Notes under the pieces: model-generated | The model's input: only the letters and a program-made list of their open reading frames with translations | What the model was told of the DNA's origin: nothing | Databases searched by the model: none | Position numbers and translations under genes: made by a program | Shown: positions 12,633-54,307 of the stretch, piece after piece | Position numbering within the stretch: the stretch's first letter is position 1 | How the letters are laid out: the number at the start of each line of letters is the position of its first letter | From: Luteolibacter sp. | Lineage (GTDB): Bacteria > Verrucomicrobiota > Verrucomicrobiia > Verrucomicrobiales > Akkermansiaceae | Assembly: GCA_047921195.1 (NCBI GenBank) | Contig: JBLRWN010000009.1 | Coordinates: 396-64,395 of the forward strand | Length of the DNA stretch: 64,000 bases | Direction of reading: 5' to 3'

Positions 12633-12881
12633 CTCTTTGGGTAGAATGCCTGCAATCCGCAGTTTTGTCTGTAATTTTTGTCTGCGGAAACCCGAGGACA
12701 ACTTATCGGAGAAGCAGGGGGGGCAGGTCGGAAGCATCGACACATCATGTGAACCGGAAGACGGACGAGGATGATCGATGGTAAACCTCCCTATTCGATT
12801 CCGCATTACATACATTGTCACAAGTTTATAATGGGGATTTCCTCCAAGGGTTTGAAACGGCAGGCCCGCTGATGATGTGGC

Positions 12882-44907: not shown

Positions 44908-45314
44908 CTTCCCTTTTCAACGCTGCCTGACGTGCAGCGTTTTTTGTTTCTGGCAACTCCACCCACCGTTCGACGAGAGGGCTGGGACGAGAACCCCTGC
45001 GCAGCATCATGGGTTCGACTGCCACTTTCGATCGCATCGAAACATCCATCTCACCGCGAAGCGCACCCCGCAGAGACGCAGCACAGCGAAGTCAATCCCA
45101 GTCCTCGTACTTCCCTTTTCAACGCTGCCTGACGTGCAGCGTTTTTTGTTTCTGGCAACTCCACCCACCGTTCGACGAGAGGGCTGGGACGAGAACCCCT
45201 GCGCAGCATCATGGGTTCGACTGCCACTTTCGATCGCATCGAAACATCCATCTCACCGCGAAGCGCACCCCGCAGAGACGCAGCACAGCGAAGTCAATCC
45301 CAGTCCTTGTACTT
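44894..45314 (+). repeat. Exact 202-bp tandem duplication starting in the tRNA T-loop, plus a third imperfect tRNA 3'-end copy
   Basis: tcccagtcctcgtactt at 44894 and 45096, tcccagtccttgtactt at 45298; intervening sequences identical by eye. Confidence 0.92.
44919..44945 (+). terminator. Rho-independent terminator after tRNA-Lys (second copy 45121-45147)
   Basis: aacgctgc-ctgacgt-gcagcgtt followed by a T-run. Confidence 0.8.
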
Positions 45315-45570
45315 CATTGCTAAAGTGCTGAAATTCAAATGATTGCGAATTTCTCGCCAGCCCGGAAATTGCCGAATGTGCATGAAAATGTGTAGTGTGT
45401 TTGTATTTGGCCTATTTTATCCATAGGCGTCCGAATGGTGTAAAATGGCCACTTTGCCCCACCATTTCACCCGCCAATCTAAATCCGGATCGTCCTCGCC
45501 ACCTTCCCCCACTCCCCGCGCCCGGCCACGCGTGATAGACGACGCGGCATTTTTCCGGTAGTCTCACCCC

Positions 45571-45846
45571 ATGAACTTCGATTGGCGTGGCCGGGTGATC
45601 CTCCAGAAACTCGCGGAGGGCTGCATCGTGCGTGAGGCGGCGGCAGCGGCGGGCATCACCAAGCGGGCCGTGAAACTCCGCATGGCGTCGAACGCTGGAT
45701 TCCGTGAAGCGGTCGCTCAGGCCCGTGAGGCAGGCGCAGACGAACGACGCTTCCGCCTGTGGCTGCGTCATCACTTCCGTGGCCGTCGTCCGCCTACGGG
45801 GAAAGGACACGGCGGTCGGCCAGCGTTCAGCTATGGCCGCCGGTGA
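45571..45846 (+). CDS. Small HTH-like protein resembling phage terminase small-subunit-type HTH proteins
   Basis: ILQKLAEGCIVREAAAAAGIT...FREAVAQAREAG pattern; resemblance recalled, not searched. Confidence 0.4.
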   Translation: MNFDWRGRVILQKLAEGCIVREAAAAAGITKRAVKLRMASNAGFREAVAQAREAGADERRFRLWLRHHFRGRRPPTGKGHGGRPAFSYGRR

Positions 45847-45905
45847 GGAGTCCGAGTGAATTCCGGCTGGCAAGCGAGTTCACAAAGCCCCATATTCGGA
45901 TTGCC

Positions 45906-46112
45906 ATGGTCACTCAACAATACCGCGAAGCCAACGAGCTTGCCGACCTCCTCGACTTCTACGAAGACGCCAGCAAATCCAAAGTCGCAAAACCCGAAGA
46001 ATTCGCCGACCTCATCGCCAGAACCCGAGCCGACCTCGCCGAGCAAGAGCGAATCGACGGCAAGCCAGCCGACCCAAGGGAACAGCGCCAAGAATTCCTC
46101 GTGGCGACCTGA
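45906..46112 (+). CDS. Small hypothetical protein
   Basis: 68-aa helical ORF with host-like codon usage. Confidence 0.45.
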   Translation: MVTQQYREANELADLLDFYEDASKSKVAKPEEFADLIARTRADLAEQERIDGKPADPREQRQEFLVAT

Positions 46113-46335
46113 TCCCGCCTTTGATCCCTCAATCTTTCTCGATTTCGTTAGGGTCGTCGGCCTGCGGGGCGTGATCAATGCGGTCTACCAACATTACTTA
46201 CGGTCTTTTTTGACCTTCTTCAGCTTTTGCGTGACCGGCCTTGGGCCGCCATCTTCCGCACCCACGGGTCTTTCGACTTCGAGAAGTCTTGCGGCTTGGC
46301 GGTTCAAAATTCCCAATCCGCAGGTGGCATCGCTC

Positions 46336-47382
46336 TCACCCATCCTGCATCGCCCTCACCTCGTCGCGGACCAGGCGCACCAATTCCGGCGGTGCAATCG
46401 CCTTGGCCTGGCGGCCGAAGCTCAGCACCCAGCGCACCACCTCTTCCAATCGGCCCACCTCGAATCTTACCTCCACCGGGTTGCCTTTCGCATCGAGCAT
46501 CTTGACCTCCTGCGTCGGATGCCAGCGGCGCTCTTGGGCCAACCGCGCCGCATACTGGCGCAGTTCCACCCGCACCACGTGCCGGGTCTCATCGCCATCG
46601 ACATTCCACACGCCGAACGATCGCCGCAAGTAAGTCGCACCATCGAAATCTGCCGACCGTTCGAATCGGCCTTTCATCACCTTGGTGTTTGAGATCCTCG
46701 GCAAAGCGAACGTCCGCAGCGCCGCGCGGTCCAGATCATGCGCGATCAGATACCAGCCACCCTCGACCTCGCCGAGATGCAGTGGTTGCACCGCTCTGAC
46801 CTCTCCCTCGTCCGCCCCGAGCTTGCGGTAGAGGAAGGAAATTTCACGCTGGTCCAGCACCGCCTTGGCCAGCTTGCCGAAGGCCCCGAGCACCTTCGTG
46901 TCTTGAACCACCGCTTTGCGCGAAAACGCCTCGTCGAGATCGTTCCACGTGAACCCCACCTTCCCCAGCATACCCTGCGTGAGCTTCGCGAAGGCCGCGC
47001 TCAGCGCATCCGACACCCGCGTCCCCCGGATCCCGCGCAGCGCGCTGCGGGTGAAAAACAACGTCGCCAGCTCGTCCTCCGACAACTGGAACACCGGAAA
47101 ATCCGACACATCCCCGTCGTAGCGGTAGCCGTGCAGATCCTCGCAATACACCAGCGGCAGACCCAGCGAATCGCGCATGAAATTGATGTCGCGCTGGATC
47201 GTCTTGCGCGTCACCCCCAACCGCTCCGCCAGCGTCGAACAGTTCGGCAGGCCGCCTTTGCAGATCACCGCATGAATCTCGTAGATCCGCTGAATCGGCC
47301 GCCGCGTGCTGCCATCGCGCGGAGCATGCACCGCCGGATTCGCAACGGACGACTTCGGAGCAGGGCGGGAGCGGGTTTTCAT
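46336..47382 (-). CDS. HTH-WYL-WCX transcriptional regulator (YafY/PafB-like)
   Basis: LAERLGVTRKTIQRDI HTH; QPLHL..GGWYLIAHD; RTFALPRI; EVVRWVLSFG. Confidence 0.92.
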   Translation of the reverse strand: MKTRSRPAPKSSVANPAVHAPRDGSTRRPIQRIYEIHAVICKGGLPNCSTLAERLGVTRKTIQRDINFMRDSLGLPLVYCEDLHGYRYDGDVSDFPVFQLSEDELATLFFTRSALRGIRGTRVSDALSAAFAKLTQGMLGKVGFTWNDLDEAFSRKAVVQDTKVLGAFGKLAKAVLDQREISFLYRKLGADEGEVRAVQPLHLGEVEGGWYLIAHDLDRAALRTFALPRISNTKVMKGRFERSADFDGATYLRRSFGVWNVDGDETRHVVRVELRQYAARLAQERRWHPTQEVKMLDAKGNPVEVRFEVGRLEEVVRWVLSFGRQAKAIAPPELVRLVRDEVRAMQDG

Positions 47383-47624
47383 CGGGTAGGTTCGGGTGGA
47401 AGATTCTCAAGATCCTGCTGCAGCGACTCAGGAGTAAACGACGGGATCCTGCGGCGGAATAGCTCGTCGTCGAACTCGAATCGGTTCATTCCAGCGATAC
47501 CAGCCGCCACGGATCTGGGAATTCTTCCGCTCGAAAATAGCGAGACGGCCAGCTCCAGCCTCAATTCGCTTTCGTGAAACGAAGTGAGTGCCGGATCATC
47601 TGGCAAGGTCAAGATCACGCCCAA
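47379..47624 (-). CDS. UPF0175-family protein (putative antitoxin)
   Basis: ELRLELAVSLFSSGRIPRSVAAGIAGMNRFEF..EL..RRIP; TTG start; 4-nt overlap with the WYL gene. Confidence 0.75.
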   Translation of the reverse strand: MGVILTLPDDPALTSFHESELRLELAVSLFSSGRIPRSVAAGIAGMNRFEFDDELFRRRIPSFTPESLQQDLENLPPEPTR

Positions 47625-47752
47625 GCTGTATTCCGAAACAACGGGATGCCAACTTCAAAAAAAATGACGGATTCCGAGCGTTTTTCACACCCTACCCCCG
47701 CCGTTGTCCCACCCCGGGGGGTAAAAACGGACATGCTGAAACACGAAAACCG

Positions 47753-47827
47753 TGTGAGCTTCGCGAACCTTCATTGATGCAAAACCTGTTTGCTTGGACT
47801 GAGGTTACGAGGTCAAATTCAGAAATG
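47753..47827 (+). repeat. Left copy of ~75-bp inverted repeat
   Basis: tgtgagcttcgcgaac...cctgtttgcttggactgaggttacgaggtcaaattc; reverse complement at 53514-53588. Confidence 0.9.
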
Positions 47828-47834
47828 AGACCAA

Positions 47835-47869
47835 CCTTCAACCTTCAACCTTCAACCTTCAACCCTTAA
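47835..47869 (+). repeat. (ccttcaa)x4 plus cccttaa heptamer array
   Basis: Read directly; same unit family as 51979-52062. Confidence 0.85.
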
Positions 47870-47882
47870 CTCTCCCACCTCC

Positions 47883-48224
47883 ATGCACCCCTTCGCCCCC
47901 GGCGACCGCGTCGTCGCCATCAACCTCGACATTTCCGTTCCGTTGTATCCGAACGGAGATTGTAGCGCTCACCCCTTTCTTTTTCCGGACGGACCATTGC
48001 GGCGCAATGTGGTTTACCGTGTTGATGCGGTCTGTGATCGCAAAGGTCGCCAAGGACTCTACCTCTGCGGGATGCGTATTTTCTGGGGAGGGCGCGATAT
48101 CGCTTGGGATTCCTCCCGCTTCCGCAAGGTTGAAGAGGTCGGCCACCCCCCAGTGGCCGTCAAAAAAGCAAAACCCGTGAGAGCCAAAAGCATTCAAAAA
48201 ACTCCCTCAACGATCACCGCATGA
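47883..48224 (+). CDS. Hypothetical protein (SH3/KOW-like start FAPGDRVV)
   Basis: 113-aa ORF; ATGA overlap with the SLOG gene. Confidence 0.55.
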   Translation: MHPFAPGDRVVAINLDISVPLYPNGDCSAHPFLFPDGPLRRNVVYRVDAVCDRKGRQGLYLCGMRIFWGGRDIAWDSSRFRKVEEVGHPPVAVKKAKPVRAKSIQKTPSTITA

Positions 48225-48856
48225 CGCTGGACACCTTCGCCTCCCTCATCTCCTCCGCGCCCGCCCCGGTGATCCTCATCGAAGGCCGTCGCTCGATCCC
48301 GGATGACGTCGCGCACCTGGCCCGGCGGGTTTCCTCCATGCTGGCCACGCGCTTTCCCGCCCTGCGCTTCCGCTCCGGCAATGCCACCGGGACCGACCAA
48401 GCATTCGCTGCAGGCGTGATCGACGTGGCACCCGAACGCCTGGAAATCATCGCCCCCTACGCCATGCACCGCGCCAAGTCCCGCCACCCGCTCGTGCGTT
48501 ACGAGTCACCGGAATCCCTCAGCGAAGAGGAGTTGGAACAAGTGAAATCGCTTACCATGGCCGCCACCCCCGCCAATAAATCCTTGATCCGCTGCTACGG
48601 CCGTGGCGGACGCGCCGCCGCCCAGGCTGCCTGCCTGATCCGCGACACCCTGAAAGTCACCGGCATGAATGAGTCGGCGCGCCGAGTAGTCACGGCGGAT
48701 CGAGCCGAGTCCGCCCTACCCATCCCCACCGCCGCCCTGTTCTGGGTCGATCCCGCCGAACCCGAAACCGGCGGCACCGGCCACACCATCCGCGTCTGCC
48801 GCCTCCAAGGCGTCCCTGTGATCTTCCAACGCGATTGGCAGGCCTGGGCAGTATGA
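48221..48856 (+). CDS. SLOG-superfamily (DprA/YpsA-like) nucleotide-binding protein
   Basis: ILIEGRR, FRSGNATGTDQAF, GGTGHTIRVC..QGVPV. Confidence 0.7.
   Translation: MTLDTFASLISSAPAPVILIEGRRSIPDDVAHLARRVSSMLATRFPALRFRSGNATGTDQAFAAGVIDVAPERLEIIAPYAMHRAKSRHPLVRYESPESLSEEELEQVKSLTMAATPANKSLIRCYGRGGRAAAQAACLIRDTLKVTGMNESARRVVTADRAESALPIPTAALFWVDPAEPETGGTGHTIRVCRLQGVPVIFQRDWQAWAV
48729..48849 (+). repeat. 121-bp direct repeat, copy 1 (3' end of SLOG gene)
   Basis: Matches 49975-50095 with 5 substitutions counted by eye. Confidence 0.9.
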
Positions 48857-48910
48857 TGCTTTATTTCACATGTTGCATTTATTTCAGATGGATGTCAGAT
48901 TATCTCCGCC

Positions 48911-49348
48911 ATGAGTACCACCTTAGAACCATCCCGTTTAACCCCTGGCGATCAAGGCGCCTTGCGCAGTCTGCTGGAGGCGTTGCACGGCCCCGGCGAT
49001 TCCGCCAACGCCACGATCACCGTGGGCAATCGACCGATTTCATTGCCAACACCTGCCCTCGGACTTGTCACCGAGCTGTTGGAACATCTTGCCGCAGGAC
49101 GCTCTGTCACGGTGCTTGGCGCTGAAGAGGAAATTTCACCACGCGAAGCGGCGGAGCTGTTGGGAGTCTCCCGACCGTTTGCCTCCCGGCTCTTCGATGA
49201 TGGGCAGATTCCCAGCCGCCGGGTGGGCACCCACCGCCGTGCCTACATCAAGGATGTGCTCGCCTACCGGGAACGCCAGCACACCGCACGGCGTGCAGCC
49301 CTCGACGAACTCGCGGCAGAAGGCCAACGACTCAACCTTGGATACTGA
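48911..49348 (+). CDS. Excisionase-like HTH protein, antitoxin of PIN pair
   Basis: EISPREAAELLGVSRPFASRLFDDGQIPSRRVGTHRR; RRAALDELAAEGQRLNLGY. Confidence 0.85.
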   Translation: MSTTLEPSRLTPGDQGALRSLLEALHGPGDSANATITVGNRPISLPTPALGLVTELLEHLAAGRSVTVLGAEEEISPREAAELLGVSRPFASRLFDDGQIPSRRVGTHRRAYIKDVLAYRERQHTARRAALDELAAEGQRLNLGY

Positions 49349-49352
49349 AGGA

Positions 49353-49922
49353 ATGAGCCCCTCCGTTGTTGTCCTCGATGCCTGCACGCTCTACCCGGCG
49401 GCCTTGCGCGACGTCCTGATGCGACTGGCTCTTCACCAACTCATCCACGCCCGCTGGACGGATGCCATTCACGACGAATGGATAGAGGCGGTGCTCCGCG
49501 ACCGGCAGGATCTTACCCGTGAGCGCTTGCAACGGACCCGTGAACTGATGGATTTTCATTCGGAGGGTAGTCTGGTCACGGGTTACGAACATCGGATTCA
49601 AGATCTCGAACTACCCGATAAGGATGACCGCCATGTGCTGGCAGCCGCCATCGAAACGGAAGCCGACAGCATTCTCACTTGGAATTTGAAGGACTTCCCC
49701 GTGGCTTTACTCGCCAGCCATGGAATCCACGCGACGACCCCGGACGAGTTGCTCTCCAGACTCAGTAAAGACCACCCGGAGGAGATGATCACCGTCCTGC
49801 GCGAGGCGCGTCTCTGCTTGAGACAGCCACCGGTTTCGGCCGCCGAATACCTTGCGACCTTGAGCAACCAAGGACTGATCCGCACCTGCGCAATTCTCCA
49901 ACCGCGAATTCATGAACTGTAA
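49353..49922 (+). CDS. PIN-domain toxin (VapC-like)
   Basis: VVLDACTLYP, WTDAIHDEW, DKDDRHVLAAA, ILTWNLKDFP. Confidence 0.88.
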   Translation: MSPSVVVLDACTLYPAALRDVLMRLALHQLIHARWTDAIHDEWIEAVLRDRQDLTRERLQRTRELMDFHSEGSLVTGYEHRIQDLELPDKDDRHVLAAAIETEADSILTWNLKDFPVALLASHGIHATTPDELLSRLSKDHPEEMITVLREARLCLRQPPVSAAEYLATLSNQGLIRTCAILQPRIHEL

Positions 49923-49974
49923 TGTCAGCAATCCCGTACATCCTCACGGTTGGAAATGATCCAGTCTCTCTGAT

Positions 49975-50102
49975 CCGCCGCCCTGTTCTGGATCGACCCC
50001 ACCGACCCCGAAGCCGGCGGCACCGGCCACACCATCCGCGTCTGCCGCCTCCAAGGCGTCCCTGTGATCTTCCAACGCGATTGGCAGGCCTGGGCGACTT
50101 GA
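49975..50102 (+). pseudogene. Orphan 3' fragment of SLOG gene (direct repeat copy 2)
   Basis: Encodes AALFWIDPTDPEAGGTGHTIRVCRLQGVPVIFQRDWQAWAT-stop with no 5' part. Confidence 0.85.
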
Positions 50103-50105
50103 TGC

Positions 50106-50193
50106 GCTTATGACACAATCCCACCACCAACCTAACCTCCACCCCGATTCCGCTTCACACCCATAGGCCTTTTCGCTTTTCTCACAGAGTGCT
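50106..50193 (+). repeat. Conserved ~88-bp intergenic element, copy A
   Basis: gcttatgacacaatc...ctccaccccgattccgcttcacacc...gccttttcgcttttctc...gtgct; homologous to 52227-52313. Confidence 0.8.
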
Positions 50194-50243
50194 CAGCAAC
50201 CAACTGGAGCCTTCTGAAAACCTCCCCCACACAGCCATCCGAC

Positions 50244-51620
50244 GTGCATCCCGAATCCCAACACCTCGAATACAAACGCGAGATTACCGACACTCTCGAA
50301 CGCGAGGTCGTGGGCTTTCTCAACAGCCGCGAAGGCGGGCGCATCCTGATCGGAGTGGATGATTCTGGAACGATCCTCGGACTCGCCGATCCGGATGGCG
50401 ATCAGCTCAAGATCAAAGACCGCTTGAAGCAGAATATCCAGCCCTCATGCCTCGGCCTCTTCGACGTATTGATCGAGGAGAGCGAGGGAAAAACTTGGAT
50501 CAAACTGCTCGTCGCCAGCGGTTCGGAAAAACCCTACTACCTCCGCAAGCAAGGCATGAGCCCCCGGGGCTGCTTTCTGCGCATCGGCAGCGCCACCGAG
50601 CCCATGCCAGAGCGCCAAATCGAGGCCCTTTTCGCCAAACGCACACGCAATTCCATCAGCCGCATCGCATCCCCACGCCAGGACCTCAAATTCTCCCAAC
50701 TCAAAATTTACTACGAAGCAACGGGACGCGAACCCAATGCCCAGTTTCTCAAAAACCTCGAACTCTTCACCGAGGACGACCGCTACAACTACGCCGCCTA
50801 TCTATTGGCGGACATCAACAACACGTCCATCAAAGTCGCCAAATATCGTGGCACAGACCGGGTCGATCTGATCGAAAACGAGGAATACGGAAATTGCTGC
50901 CTGGTCAAGGCGACCAAACAGGTGCTCGACAAACTCGATCTCGAAAACCGCACCCTCACCCGCATCACCCCGAAAGAGCGTCAGGAAACCCGCCTTCTCG
51001 ATCCCGTCGCCCTGCGCGAGGCCGTGATCAACGCCATCATCCACAACGACTACAGCTACGAAGGCGTTCCCAAGTTCGAACTGTTTGCCGACAGACTGGA
51101 GATCACCTCAACCGGCAGCATTCCCCAGGGCCTGAGCGAAGCCGAGTTTTTCGAAGGCTACTCCATCCCCCGCAACAAGGAGTTGATGCGCATCTTCCGC
51201 GACCTCGACATGGTGGAATACCTTGGGTCCGGCATGCCCCGCATCCTCCGGGCCTACCCTAAGGAATGCTTCCGCTTCTGCGAAAACTTCACCCGCATGG
51301 TATTCCCATTCCCTTTGTCAGGGGCAGAGTCAGGGGCAGAGTCGAGGGCCCAGTCAGGGGCCCAGTCAGGGGCCCAGTCAGGGGCCCAGTCAGGGGCCCA
51401 GTCGGAACGCGTTCTCCTAGCGCTCACAGACTGCCCACTTTCTTCTCAAGAAATCGCTCTCATCCTCGACTTGGAATCCAAATCAGGATCCTTGAAGCGC
51501 TCACTGAAACAACTGCTCGAAGAAGGCTTGGTGGAATACACCATCCCCGAAAAACCCAACAGCCGCCTCCAAAAATACCGACTCACCGCACAAGGCAGAA
51601 AGATGAAGGATGAAGGATGA
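50244..51620 (+). CDS. AlbA_2 (Schlafen-like) domain plus ATP-binding RecG-C-like domain plus C-terminal wHTH
   Basis: ESQHLEYKRE, FLNSREGGRILIGVDDSG, ALREAVINAIIHNDYS, RNKELMRIF, GSGMPRI, KPNSRLQKYRLT. Confidence 0.85.
   Translation: MHPESQHLEYKREITDTLEREVVGFLNSREGGRILIGVDDSGTILGLADPDGDQLKIKDRLKQNIQPSCLGLFDVLIEESEGKTWIKLLVASGSEKPYYLRKQGMSPRGCFLRIGSATEPMPERQIEALFAKRTRNSISRIASPRQDLKFSQLKIYYEATGREPNAQFLKNLELFTEDDRYNYAAYLLADINNTSIKVAKYRGTDRVDLIENEEYGNCCLVKATKQVLDKLDLENRTLTRITPKERQETRLLDPVALREAVINAIIHNDYSYEGVPKFELFADRLEITSTGSIPQGLSEAEFFEGYSIPRNKELMRIFRDLDMVEYLGSGMPRILRAYPKECFRFCENFTRMVFPFPLSGAESGAESRAQSGAQSGAQSGAQSGAQSERVLLALTDCPLSSQEIALILDLESKSGSLKRSLKQLLEEGLVEYTIPEKPNSRLQKYRLTAQGRKMKDEG
51318..51401 (+). 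repeat. 7 x 12-bp in-frame tandem repeat (SGAE/SGAQ linker)
   Basis: tcaggggcagag x2, tcgagggcccag, tcaggggcccag x4. Confidence 0.92.
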
Positions 51621-51622
51621 AG
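51602..51622 (+). repeat. (gatgaag)x3 heptamer array supplying the start codon of the four-helix gene
   Basis: Read directly; reverse complement of the downstream ccttcat-type array. Confidence 0.8.
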
Positions 51623-51972
51623 GACAGACAGACCTCGTGGAACGGACGACCGAGTTCGCACTCCGGGTCGTGAGAATGTTCGTCGCCCTGCCGAAGACGG
51701 AGGAAGCCCGCGTTCTCGGCAGACAAGTCTTGCGCTCCGGCACATCCGTCGGCGCGAACTACCGTGAAGCCCAGCGCGCCCGCTCAAAAGCCGAATTCGT
51801 TTCCAAAATCGGCGACTGTCTCAAAGAGCTCGACGAGTCATCCTACTGGCTCGAACTCCTCGTCCGCTCCGAAATAGTCCCCGAAACCAAACTCGCGGCC
51901 CTCCGCGACGAGAACAACCAACTCTTGGCCATTTTCACCGCAATCTCTAAGAAAGCCAAAGGAGCCCCCTAA
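51610..51972 (+). CDS. Four-helix-bundle protein (23S rRNA IVS-protein/Avd-like family)
   Basis: LVERTTEFALRV, LGRQVLRSGTSVGANYREA.RARSKAEFVSKI...LKELDES.YWLELL. Confidence 0.93.
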   Translation: MKDEGQTDLVERTTEFALRVVRMFVALPKTEEARVLGRQVLRSGTSVGANYREAQRARSKAEFVSKIGDCLKELDESSYWLELLVRSEIVPETKLAALRDENNQLLAIFTAISKKAKGAP

Positions 51973-51978
51973 TCTTCC

Positions 51979-52062
51979 CCCTCAGCCCTCATCCTTCAGC
52001 CCTCATCCTTCAACCCTCATCCTTCAACCCTCATCCTTCAACCTTAAACCTTCATCCTCCAT
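51979..52062 (+). repeat. 12 degenerate heptamers (ccctcat/ccttcaa family)
   Basis: ccctcag ccctcat ccttcag ccctcat ccttcaa ... cctccat. Confidence 0.9.
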
Positions 52063-52234
52063 CCACAAAGCCAAAGGCCTCGACTCCAAAGCCGTCATCC
52101 TCATCGGCATGCCCCCGCAGCAAGATCTCGCCAGCGACTACGAGAAATACACCTGGTTCATGGCCGTCAGCCGGGCGCGGCAGATGCTGGCCGTGGTGGA
52201 AGGGCGAAGCGGCCACTCCGACGAGTGCTTATAA
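52061..52234 (+). pseudogene. 3' fragment of a UvrD-like SF1 helicase gene
   Basis: IHKAKGLDSKAVIL (motif V-like) and FMAVSRARQML (motif VI-like), then stop; no 5' part. Confidence 0.75.
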
Positions 52235-52313
52235 CACAATCTAAGATCTGCTAAATCTCCACCCCGATTCCACTTCACACCCTCCCGCCTTTTCGCTTTT
52301 CTCCGAACGTGCT
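52227..52313 (+). repeat. Conserved ~88-bp intergenic element, copy B
   Basis: Homologous to 50106-50193. Confidence 0.8.
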
Positions 52314-52359
52314 TTACCGACCATTCACCTCCCTCAACTTGCGTCCCACTTGAAGTGCA

Positions 52360-53385
52360 ATGAGACAGGATCTCCCACAGCCCTCCGGCGAATTCCTCTT
52401 TTACTCCGGCCCCGATGGACGGATGAAGGTGGAGTGCCGCTTTCAAGACGAGACGCTCTGGCTCACCCAGCGGCTCATGGCCGATCTGTTCGGGGTCGGC
52501 GTTCCCGCGATCAACAAACACCTGAAAAACATCTTCGAGTCCGGGGAATTGAGGGAAGAAGAGGCTATTTCCATTTTGGAAACAACCACTCCCCACGGTG
52601 CAATTGAGGGGAAAACCCAGACCCAGAAGACGCGTTTCTACAACCTCGACGCCATCATCGCGGTGGGCTACCGGGTCAACAGTTACCAAGCCACGCAGTT
52701 CCGGATATGGGCGACGCGGACTCTCAAAGAGTTCATCATCAAGGGCTTCGTGATGGACGACGAGCGTCTCAAGCAGGGCGGCACGGTCTTTGGCGTGGAT
52801 TACTTTGAGGAATTGCTGGAGCGCATCCGCGAAATCCGGGCCAGCGAGCGACGGTTTTACCAGAAAATCACCGACATCTACGCCACTGCGGTCGATTATG
52901 ACCCCAAGGCACCGGTCACCCGCGAATTCTTTGCCACCGTCCAGAACAAGCTCCACTGGGCCATCACCGGCAAGACCGCCGCCGAGCAGATCTACGCCTC
53001 CGCCGATGCCGAGAAACTCCACATGGGACTCACCAGCTGGAAAAACGCACCCCAGGGAAAAATCCTGAAGTCGGACATCACGGTCGCTAAAAACTACCTG
53101 AGCGCGAAGCACATCGAGGAGCTGAATCGCATCATTTCCGCCTACCTCGAACTCGCCGAAAACCGCGCCCGCCGGGGCATCTTTACGAGAATGAATGAAT
53201 GGGTCACGTTCCTCCACAGCTTCCTGGAACTTTCCAACTACCCCATCCTGCAAGACGCCGGGAAGGTTTCCGCCGTAGAAGCCCACCTGAAAGCCGAGGC
53301 GGAATTTGAAACCTTCCGCAAACGCCAAGATCTCGAATACCGATCCGACTTCGACGAGGAAATCCGCCGCATCCAAGGAGACTAA
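52360..53385 (+). CDS. RhuM-family protein
   Basis: TLWLTQRLMADLFGV, FYNLDAIIAVGYRVNS..ATQFRIWAT, DYFEELLERIREIRASERRFYQK, FFATVQNKLHWA. Confidence 0.92.
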   Translation: MRQDLPQPSGEFLFYSGPDGRMKVECRFQDETLWLTQRLMADLFGVGVPAINKHLKNIFESGELREEEAISILETTTPHGAIEGKTQTQKTRFYNLDAIIAVGYRVNSYQATQFRIWATRTLKEFIIKGFVMDDERLKQGGTVFGVDYFEELLERIREIRASERRFYQKITDIYATAVDYDPKAPVTREFFATVQNKLHWAITGKTAAEQIYASADAEKLHMGLTSWKNAPQGKILKSDITVAKNYLSAKHIEELNRIISAYLELAENRARRGIFTRMNEWVTFLHSFLELSNYPILQDAGKVSAVEAHLKAEAEFETFRKRQDLEYRSDFDEEIRRIQGD

Positions 53386-53513
53386 GAATCTAGCAGTGAT
53401 TCATTTCAGTATTTGCCCTCGCTCCGCTCACGCCATGCCAATTCCGCTTCGCCAAAAGCAACCGCCGCTACCGCTCCCACCGCATTCAGCCTCTAAAAAT
53501 TTCAGCTTCTCCG

Positions 53514-53588
53514 CATTTCAGAATTTGACCTCGTAACCTCAGTCCAAGCAAACAGGCTTCGCATCAAATAAAGTTCGCGAAGCTCACA
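53514..53588 (-). repeat. Right copy of ~75-bp inverted repeat
   Basis: gaatttgacctcgtaacctcagtccaagcaaacagg...gttcgcgaagctcaca; reverse complement of 47753-47827. Confidence 0.9.
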
Positions 53589-53596
53589 GGGCTTTA

Positions 53597-53628
53597 AGCT
53601 TTTCAGCTTTTCAGCTTTTCAGATTTTT
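53597..53628 (+). repeat. (agcttttc)x3 plus agattttt octamer array
   Basis: Read directly; related degenerate units at about 53497-53520 and on the minus strand at about 63805-63845. Confidence 0.75.
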
Positions 53629-53779
53629 CGCATTTACCCCACACCCCCCCATCTTCCTCCCGTGAACCTGGACCACGCGATCGAACGGCTCTACGCACTC
53701 AAGGTGGACACGACCACCCGCGACGGCGACGGCACCCCGCACGAGAAACCGCACAAGCCGTTGCTCCTCCTCGCCGTCC

Positions 53780-53828
53780 GTGGCTGGAGCCTCCGGCTCC
53801 AGGCCGTCCCCGGAGCATCTTGCTCCGG
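53780..53828. repeat. REP-like palindrome pair inside HNH remnant
   Basis: ctggagcc-tcc-ggctccag and ccggagca-tct-tgctccgg. Confidence 0.7.
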
Positions 53829-53940
53829 ATTTCCAAATGCCCTCGCCACACCCGATCACATCCCGTGGTGCCAGGAACTCCGCGACCGCTTCACCGCGCG
53901 CTTCGAGGTCGTCCGTAAGCTGAACGACCGCAACAGCCAA

Positions 53941-54002
53941 GGGAGCGCGGGCGTCTCGCCCGCTTCTTCTCCCTCCAATGCGGCCAAGATGGCCGCGCTC
54001 CC
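53941..54002. repeat. REP-like composite palindrome inside HNH remnant
   Basis: gggagcgcgggcgtctcgcccgc ... gcggccaagatggccgcgctccc. Confidence 0.75.
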
Positions 54003-54307
54003 CACCAACGGGCCTCGTCGCGCCGTAGCCCAATGGCGAAGGCGGATCGCCCTCTGCACAAACCACCACTAGGTCATGGACCGCGACATCATCGCTCCCG
54101 GGGCCGGACCTGCACTGGCATGTTTCGAAACTGATCGGTCCGCGCAGATCGAACAGCGAAGAGAAGCTCGCGGAGCTGGCAGGCCAGGCCTTGCTTCTGC
54201 CCAAAGATGAAGCTTTCTATCCAAATGCGGAGGGGTGGAGTGGAGGCTCAAGAAATTGACCGCCTGAAAATCATGGGCCGCAGGCAAAAACCCGCCATGA
54301 GCACCGA

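Follow-up and report, generated by a model that had tools for sequence, protein, structure and literature searches.

Pneumococcal BOX, enterobacterial repetitive intergenic consensus (ERIC) and mycobacterial interspersed repetitive unit (MIRU) sequences are intergenic repeats of about 100 nt that are modular, with variable sub-units and occasional tandem multimers; their function is largely unknown, and BOX and ERIC are predicted to form stable hairpins. Invertons of the Hin–Gin–Fim type are segments beside regulated genes that are flanked by inverted repeats, usually of 10–40 nt, lie next to a recombinase gene and enclose a promoter. Repetitive extragenic palindromes (REPs) are 20–40-nt stem-loops with a terminal GTAG or CGTC tag (PMC3733652). 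Here we analyse two inverted repeats, or arms, in a 64,000-nt stretch of a Luteolibacter sp. genome (assembly GCA_047921195.1, contig JBLRWN010000009.1, positions 396 to 64,395 of the forward strand; hereafter the window, numbered from its first letter), where they bracket a 5.7-kb block of genes in a defence island downstream of tRNA-Lys. An initial annotation had proposed that the arms are the ends of a non-autonomous cargo element mobilised in trans, the edges of an invertible segment that would flip its cargo relative to the promoter region of a WYL regulator gene, or two copies of an unrecognised dispersed element or structured RNA. Of these options the dispersed element alone is supported; neither a cargo transposon nor programmed inversion is supported in the assembled sequence, and the structured RNA did not stand either. 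The arms are probably neighbouring members of a genus-wide, non-coding intergenic repeat, and their bracketing of the block is probably incidental.

An inverted-repeat search places the arms at 47746–47827 and 53514–53595, each 82 nt long, 90% complementary and spaced 5686 nt apart. A direct count gives 74 of 82 positions identical in inverted orientation and a longest exact run of 36 nt (47785–47820 against 53521–53556), so that the annotated inverted repeats of about 75 bp and their 36-bp exact core are both real; a one-gap alignment extends the similarity to 47723–47827 and 53514–53619. Aligned with each other by blastn on the 3.16-Mb genome, the arms match far above chance (E 4.7e-25). These cores lie within a left repeat copy on the minus strand (47723–47833), which in the orientation of the family faces leftwards to an operon encoding UPF0175 and WYL proteins, and a right repeat copy on the plus strand (53508–53619), which faces rightwards to a decayed HNH-like open reading frame (ORF) at 53662. 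As annotated, a short-period array adjoins each copy. On the inner side of the left copy, (CAACCTT)x5 occupies 47832–47866 on the plus strand, just upstream of an ATG at 47883; beside the right copy, (TTTTCAGC)x3 (about 53600–53627) ends in TTTACCCC, the whole array covering 53600–53640 on the plus strand and stopping 21 nt before the GTG at 53662. The palindrome TTCGCGAA noted earlier is likewise present in both arms (47760–47767 and 53574–53581); it is not a feature of the family, whose consensus at this site reads TTCGCTAA.

Membership of the arms in a larger family emerged from sensitive searches. A plain DNA search recovered the two arms alone in this genome and nothing in 60 relatives, and neither a 22-mer nor a pattern of 24 specified bases had any exact match in the genome and metagenome collections. 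More sensitive blastn and nhmmer searches brought the number of copies to three, the new one (about 80% identity) lying upstream of guaB on contig C58. A sequence-only covariance model (R1) built from an alignment of these three copies (A1) finds matches in 55 of 151 same-genus genomes, in several of them more than 10 times, and an alignment of 64 copies from about 25 genomes (A3) served as the basis of a second model, R2. Only a profile makes the family visible. R2 matches the left arm at 47732–47822 and the right arm at 53519–53611, and its solid matches in this genome number six: both arms, the C58 copy, C66:15026–15105, C63:5386–5463 and C101:451–518. Five relatives carry at least 85, 78, 71, 67 and 34 copies, all of them lower bounds from 150 candidates scored per genome. 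The element is present in 8 of 16 genomes of the genus and, elsewhere in the family, in 3 genomes from 2 of 19 other genera; overall, about a third to a half of same-genus genomes hold between one and at least 85 copies each. The initial annotation had suggested searching the repeat against the genome and its relatives, and the result, dispersed copies in varied contexts here and in relatives, comes close to the outcome that it had taken to speak against its other two options, an ordinary dispersed repeat.

The 64 copies examined lie without exception between genes, in one orientation or the other. For their context we used a codon log-odds gene finder trained on this genome, which misses horizontally acquired genes; it replaced an analysis of ORFs only, which was too noisy in high-GC DNA. 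Where a gene was called on each side of a copy, the two neighbours are co-directional in 12 cases with the copy in the orientation of the model and in 7 with the reverse one, divergent in 3 and convergent in 2. Members of the subfamily nearest the arms usually stand, after an array, 2–15 nt before the ATG of a housekeeping gene; by their N-terminal sequences these genes are ppk, ruvB (at the orthologous position in four species), a prfB-like release-factor gene, bioB, a UvrD-like helicase gene, ispE and dtd. G328, a genome rich in copies, has pairs in every geometry that bracket genes for peptidase U32, an RNB exoribonuclease (RNase R-like), a chlorite-dismutase-like (HemQ-like) protein, and Fic plus an esterase. 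The arms occupy ordinary slots of this kind, the left one separating the UPF0175–WYL operon from the first plus-strand gene and the right one separating RhuM from the decayed HNH-like gene. Because both slots are ordinary, the inverted geometry is best read as incidental and defines neither a transposon nor a switch.

Copies of the family come and go on short time scales. On C58 the copy is flanked by an unannotated gene, itself downstream of floA, and by the guaB–guaA operon; it has the orientation towards the downstream gene that both arms have, and it is absent upstream of guaB in four metagenome contigs of close relatives (GuaB identity at least 90%). Comparison of filled and empty sites reveals about 165 extra nucleotides here, between the upstream stop codon and the shared proximal region, with no clear target-site duplication. 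From its absence in these close relatives it follows both that the family has been gained or lost recently and that no essential control region of guaB includes this copy. A conserved guaB regulatory element was considered and rejected, the repeat being absent upstream of guaB in 29 same-genus genomes as well as in the four close relatives. The gap itself (G000 C58:3160–3400) is an indel hotspot: one relative (L129) carries another insert of about 75 nt, and two others (L127 and L130) carry neither.

The core of the family is about 65–70 nt long and non-palindromic, with four conserved blocks (TTTGACT, CTCCGTCCAAGC, GGCTTCGC and GTTCGCTAAGCTCAC) separated by variable spacers. It sits within variable arrays of 7–8-nt period whose unit differs by subfamily (TTTCAGNN, GGTTCTT, GATGATT or CACTCTT), and often the core is flanked by the identical unit on either side. 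One subfamily has inverted flanking arrays, which resemble terminal inverted repeats; the core itself has none. Head-to-tail multimers of three or four cores with a period of about 80 nt occur at G206:C15:88607–88940, G139:C30:5435–5669 and G213:C86:31397–31545. In the window, 53400–53510 (plus strand), upstream of the right copy, may hold a very degenerate extra tandem copy, which scores weakly with R1 (E 0.013) and is not recovered with R2. Heptamer arrays akin to (CAACCTT)x5 are found at 51969–52081 and on contigs C117 and C118.

A structured RNA, part of the third option above, was rejected. Single-sequence folds differ between the arms (z-scores -2.3, -1.2, 0.0 and 0.0), and RNAalifold on 60 aligned copies returns 0 and -0.9 kcal/mol on the two strands, with no consensus fold and no base-pair covariation; mutual information between alignment columns follows the subfamilies, not base pairs. 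Against Rfam 15, tRNA-Lys alone reaches its gathering score in the window, and permissive scans of three copies give chance-level results. The block-wise conservation suggests that a protein recognises the core, and the conserved blocks would point to some DNA-binding partner.

These properties place the repeat beside several known systems. Like REPs and the bacterial interspersed mosaic elements (BIMEs) built from them, it is small, non-coding and strictly intergenic, is present in tens to about a hundred copies that are spread unevenly among related species, and is often paired or clustered in either orientation. Unlike these tagged imperfect palindromes of 20–40 nt, its core is longer, non-palindromic and without a fold on either strand, and no Y1 transposase gene lies on any copy-bearing contig. 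It shares with BOX, ERIC and MIRU a length of about 100 nt, an intergenic position, a modular build and occasional tandem multimers, but it has no sequence relationship to them, consists of a single core in 7–8-nt arrays and has no predicted hairpin. Miniature inverted-repeat transposable elements (MITEs) and composite transposons offer a further parallel, as the repeat is short and non-autonomous, varies in presence between close relatives, has one subfamily with arrays like terminal inverted repeats and can flank genes as inverted copies; in contrast to these, its core lacks terminal inverted repeats, no duplication is found at the arms and none is evident at guaB, and no cognate transposase was identified in searches for the Resolvase, Phage_integrase and Y1_Tnp families. 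The family appears to be undescribed so far: we found nothing specific to it in the literature, and REP definitions do not fit. It would spread as a non-autonomous repeat, through some enzyme or by recombination.

Several observations weigh against a purely incidental bracket. The arms are far more alike than family members usually are, with a core identity of 91% against a family mean of 69% and within-genome means of 66–73%; only 1.2% of all copy pairs reach 88%, and the arms are each other's closest relatives. Two of the six copies in the genome lie within 6 kb, and by a rough estimate about 0.07 such pairs would be expected in 3.16 Mb. In G328, a RelB–MazF toxin–antitoxin cassette sits between two back-to-back copies in the same geometry as here. 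On inversion or excision alleles the evidence consists of the assembled sequence, and no enzyme or process that spreads the family was found in searches covering the Resolvase, Phage_integrase and Y1_Tnp families. High identity together with proximity indicates that a recent local event links the arms. One arm may recently have been copied from the other, or both may have been homogenised by gene conversion, and the data fit either course.

A first alternative is a composite or pack-type mobile unit, in which the inverted copies would be ends recognised in trans that moved the enclosed defence genes as one. This reading draws on the 82-nt inverted repeat and its core identity, on gain or loss of the family between close relatives, on the toxin–antitoxin cassette of G328, and on genome G277, where a copy lies 85 nt downstream of a homologue of the enclosed RhuM gene (55% identity) and has the relative orientation seen in the window (L144, G277:C53, 1478–1571 and 1656–2690); that association could be coincidence or old linkage. 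The boundaries speak otherwise. There is no direct repeat of at least 4 nt within 6 nt on either side of the strict or extended arm boundaries, and although the unit does end in terminal inverted repeats, the 82-nt arms, their similarity fades outward into generic arrays that precede start codons, leaving no sharp element end. An arm–cargo–arm unit was found nowhere else, whether in this genome, in 60 relatives or in the exact-pattern scans of genomes and metagenomes, and no repeat copies lie near the closest RhuM or WYL homologues. We found no empty site for the block; the contigs of close relatives end just after a ClpP-like gene, at tRNA-Lys. Pfam detects no recombinase among all ORFs at 43.4–63.8 kb, in line with the initial annotation, which had seen neither a target-site duplication nor a recombinase gene. 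Resolvase (PF00239) has no match in the genome, Phage_integrase (PF00589) and Y1_Tnp have none on contig C9, and all matches of the latter two families lie on contigs without a repeat copy; DDE families were not part of this search. The codon usage of the cargo is native-like, and pairs of copies bracket housekeeping genes in G328. We therefore consider the ends of a mobile cargo unit improbable.

Recombination between the arms could alternatively flip the 5.7-kb block, either by homologous recombination or through a site-specific enzyme encoded elsewhere. The inverted arms share the 36-nt exact run, a length that equals or barely exceeds the minimum needed for RecA-dependent exchange. An independent 2.5-kb Logan contig with an identical WYL protein reproduces 45278–47814 exactly and stops inside this run; because a k-mer graph breaks at any repeat, the stop shows an assembly branch point only. 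Sequencing run SRR32287246 contains 45278–47814 at 100% identity. As in invertons, inverted repeats here flank a segment beside regulated genes, but no recombinase was found, no promoter was detected and the repeats belong to a dispersed family. The assembly contains no serine invertase, the contig no tyrosine recombinase, and no alternative junction contig accompanies the single assembled orientation. The palindrome, as a private feature of the arms, adds nothing to such a switch, and with no promoter detected at either edge there is no evident regulatory logic to flipping. An invertible segment that would switch cargo relative to the WYL promoter region is accordingly very improbable.

A third alternative takes each copy as a portable regulatory module, that is, a promoter, operator or leader reading outward, so that the arms would co-regulate the UPF0175–WYL operon on the left and an operon of HNH-like and Dcm–PRTase genes on the right, possibly through the WYL protein. 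The shared orientation of the arms and the guaB copy relative to the next gene, the position of the arm-like subfamily just before the ATGs of housekeeping genes, a core that begins with a near-consensus TTGACT and conservation in blocks, as in protein-binding sites, are all consistent with this proposal. However, a scan of 47300–54300 for a canonical promoter found no sigma-70-type sequence, the consensus has no -10-like hexamer at the right spacing from TTGACT, orientation across the family is not fixed (12 against 7 between co-directional genes), four close relatives do without the guaB copy and half of the genus lacks the element. A regulatory module is thus unlikely as an account of the arms.

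The arms were also considered, and rejected, as the operator of the WYL protein: three relatives share a different motif upstream of the WYL gene, and no repeat copy lies near six WYL homologues. That other motif, the 20-nt TTACATATATTGTMACAAGT, is conserved upstream of the WYL genes in L061, L062 and L063 and is likely to be the operator of this family of WYL regulators. It occurs once in the window with one mismatch, at 12806–12825, far from the WYL gene discussed here.

The similarity that the initial annotation had followed outward from the arms, through tttcagc-type units to tttacccc, is readily seen, but it belongs to a generic motif found genome-wide and is not specific to the repeat. 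Sequences of this type match many other sites in the genome, and in its strict form, (TTTCMGNN)n with a closing TTTACC, the motif occurs 16 times; 14 of these occurrences precede an ORF of at least 80 aa that starts within 60 nt and mostly within 20 nt. As these instances mostly stand ahead of ORF starts, the outer part of the arms represents a genome-wide pre-start-codon motif. On the outer side of the left copy it takes the form of degenerate TTTCGTG/TTTCAGC units ending in TTTTTACCCC (47712–47745, minus strand), where no ORF follows closely and the UPF0175 start lies about 90 nt further on. Typically, two to five TTTCMGNN units end in TTTACC(C), often right behind the stop codon of the previous gene; examples are window positions 53600–53640, C72:2435–2479, C7:14530–14570 and C8:79117–79156. 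The motif may be a translation-initiation or short-leader signal of the host.

More ambitiously, the family could constitute an undescribed class of element in which a protein-recognised core sits in hypervariable arrays, and perhaps seeds or targets them, and which serves as portable gene punctuation and, in accessory regions, as homology for swapping or flipping defence and toxin–antitoxin cassettes; we regard this as rather unlikely. We return to the reading of the arms as two members of a dispersed intergenic repeat. The bracket probably marks no new cargo transposon or defence-island switch, so the 5.7-kb block is to be read as ordinary island content. In many uncultured Akkermansiaceae-like genomes the well-defined repeat family, represented by A3 and R2, serves as a mark of intergenic DNA; short-read assemblies break at it, and it can be mistaken for the ends of a transposon. 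Possible uses are the typing of strains and the study of how small repeats can disperse when no transposase is obvious. No new mechanism is shown here; the family is mildly interesting in its own right.

The genes around the arms are those of the island. The left flanking operon (46336–47624, minus strand) comprises a UPF0175 antitoxin-like gene (47379–47624) and a WYL–WCX regulator gene (46336–47382). Between the arms, genes at 47883–53385, which we list for context only, with no implication that they belong to a mobile unit, lie entirely on the plus strand, as annotated. By Pfam and PADLOC their order is two unannotated ORFs, HTH_17 and PIN_3, an AlbA_2/HATPase_c_4/Fic-like_C gene, a 23S_rRNA_IVP four-helix gene and RhuM, which PADLOC labels PDC-S05. 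Pfam confirms each of these domain assignments, and the earlier 'SLOG' label for 48221–48856 finds no support in Pfam or PADLOC. Searches for exact protein records of RhuM, the HNH-like ORF and the 211-aa ORF returned none. To the right, the decayed HNH-like ORF (53662–54072, plus strand) is followed by Dcm, PRTase-CE and ORC-CDC6-like genes and then by a set of EcoRII-C, Dcm and Vsr genes.

The genome is a 146-contig, metagenome-type assembly of 96% completeness, and the join across the right arm is that of this one assembly. Two metagenome contigs of close relatives (L137 and L138), whose ClpP-like flanking gene is 99% and 87% identical, end about 240 nt past that gene. Their break point is tRNA-Lys with its 202-nt tandem units, a repeat region that regularly breaks assemblies.

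The island contains further repeats. The HNH-like ORF is broken at 53777–53828 by a separate dispersed element, hairpin-like and about 50 nt long, with copies of 80–86% identity on C4, on C53 and near both ends of contig C9. A 12-nt tandem array of about 7–9 units (51305–51415) lies in frame inside the AlbA_2/HATPase_c_4/Fic-like_C ORF, where it separates the ATPase-like from the winged-helix domain, and also fills the small contig C124. Two direct repeats lie within the block: 48729–48859 and 49975–50105, where 131 nt from the 3′ end of the 211-aa ORF are duplicated (93%) so as to flank the HTH–PIN pair, and 50106–50183 and 52227–52303, a junction segment of about 78 nt (80%) ahead of the AlbA-type gene and RhuM. 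Together they suggest that the island was assembled cassette by cassette.

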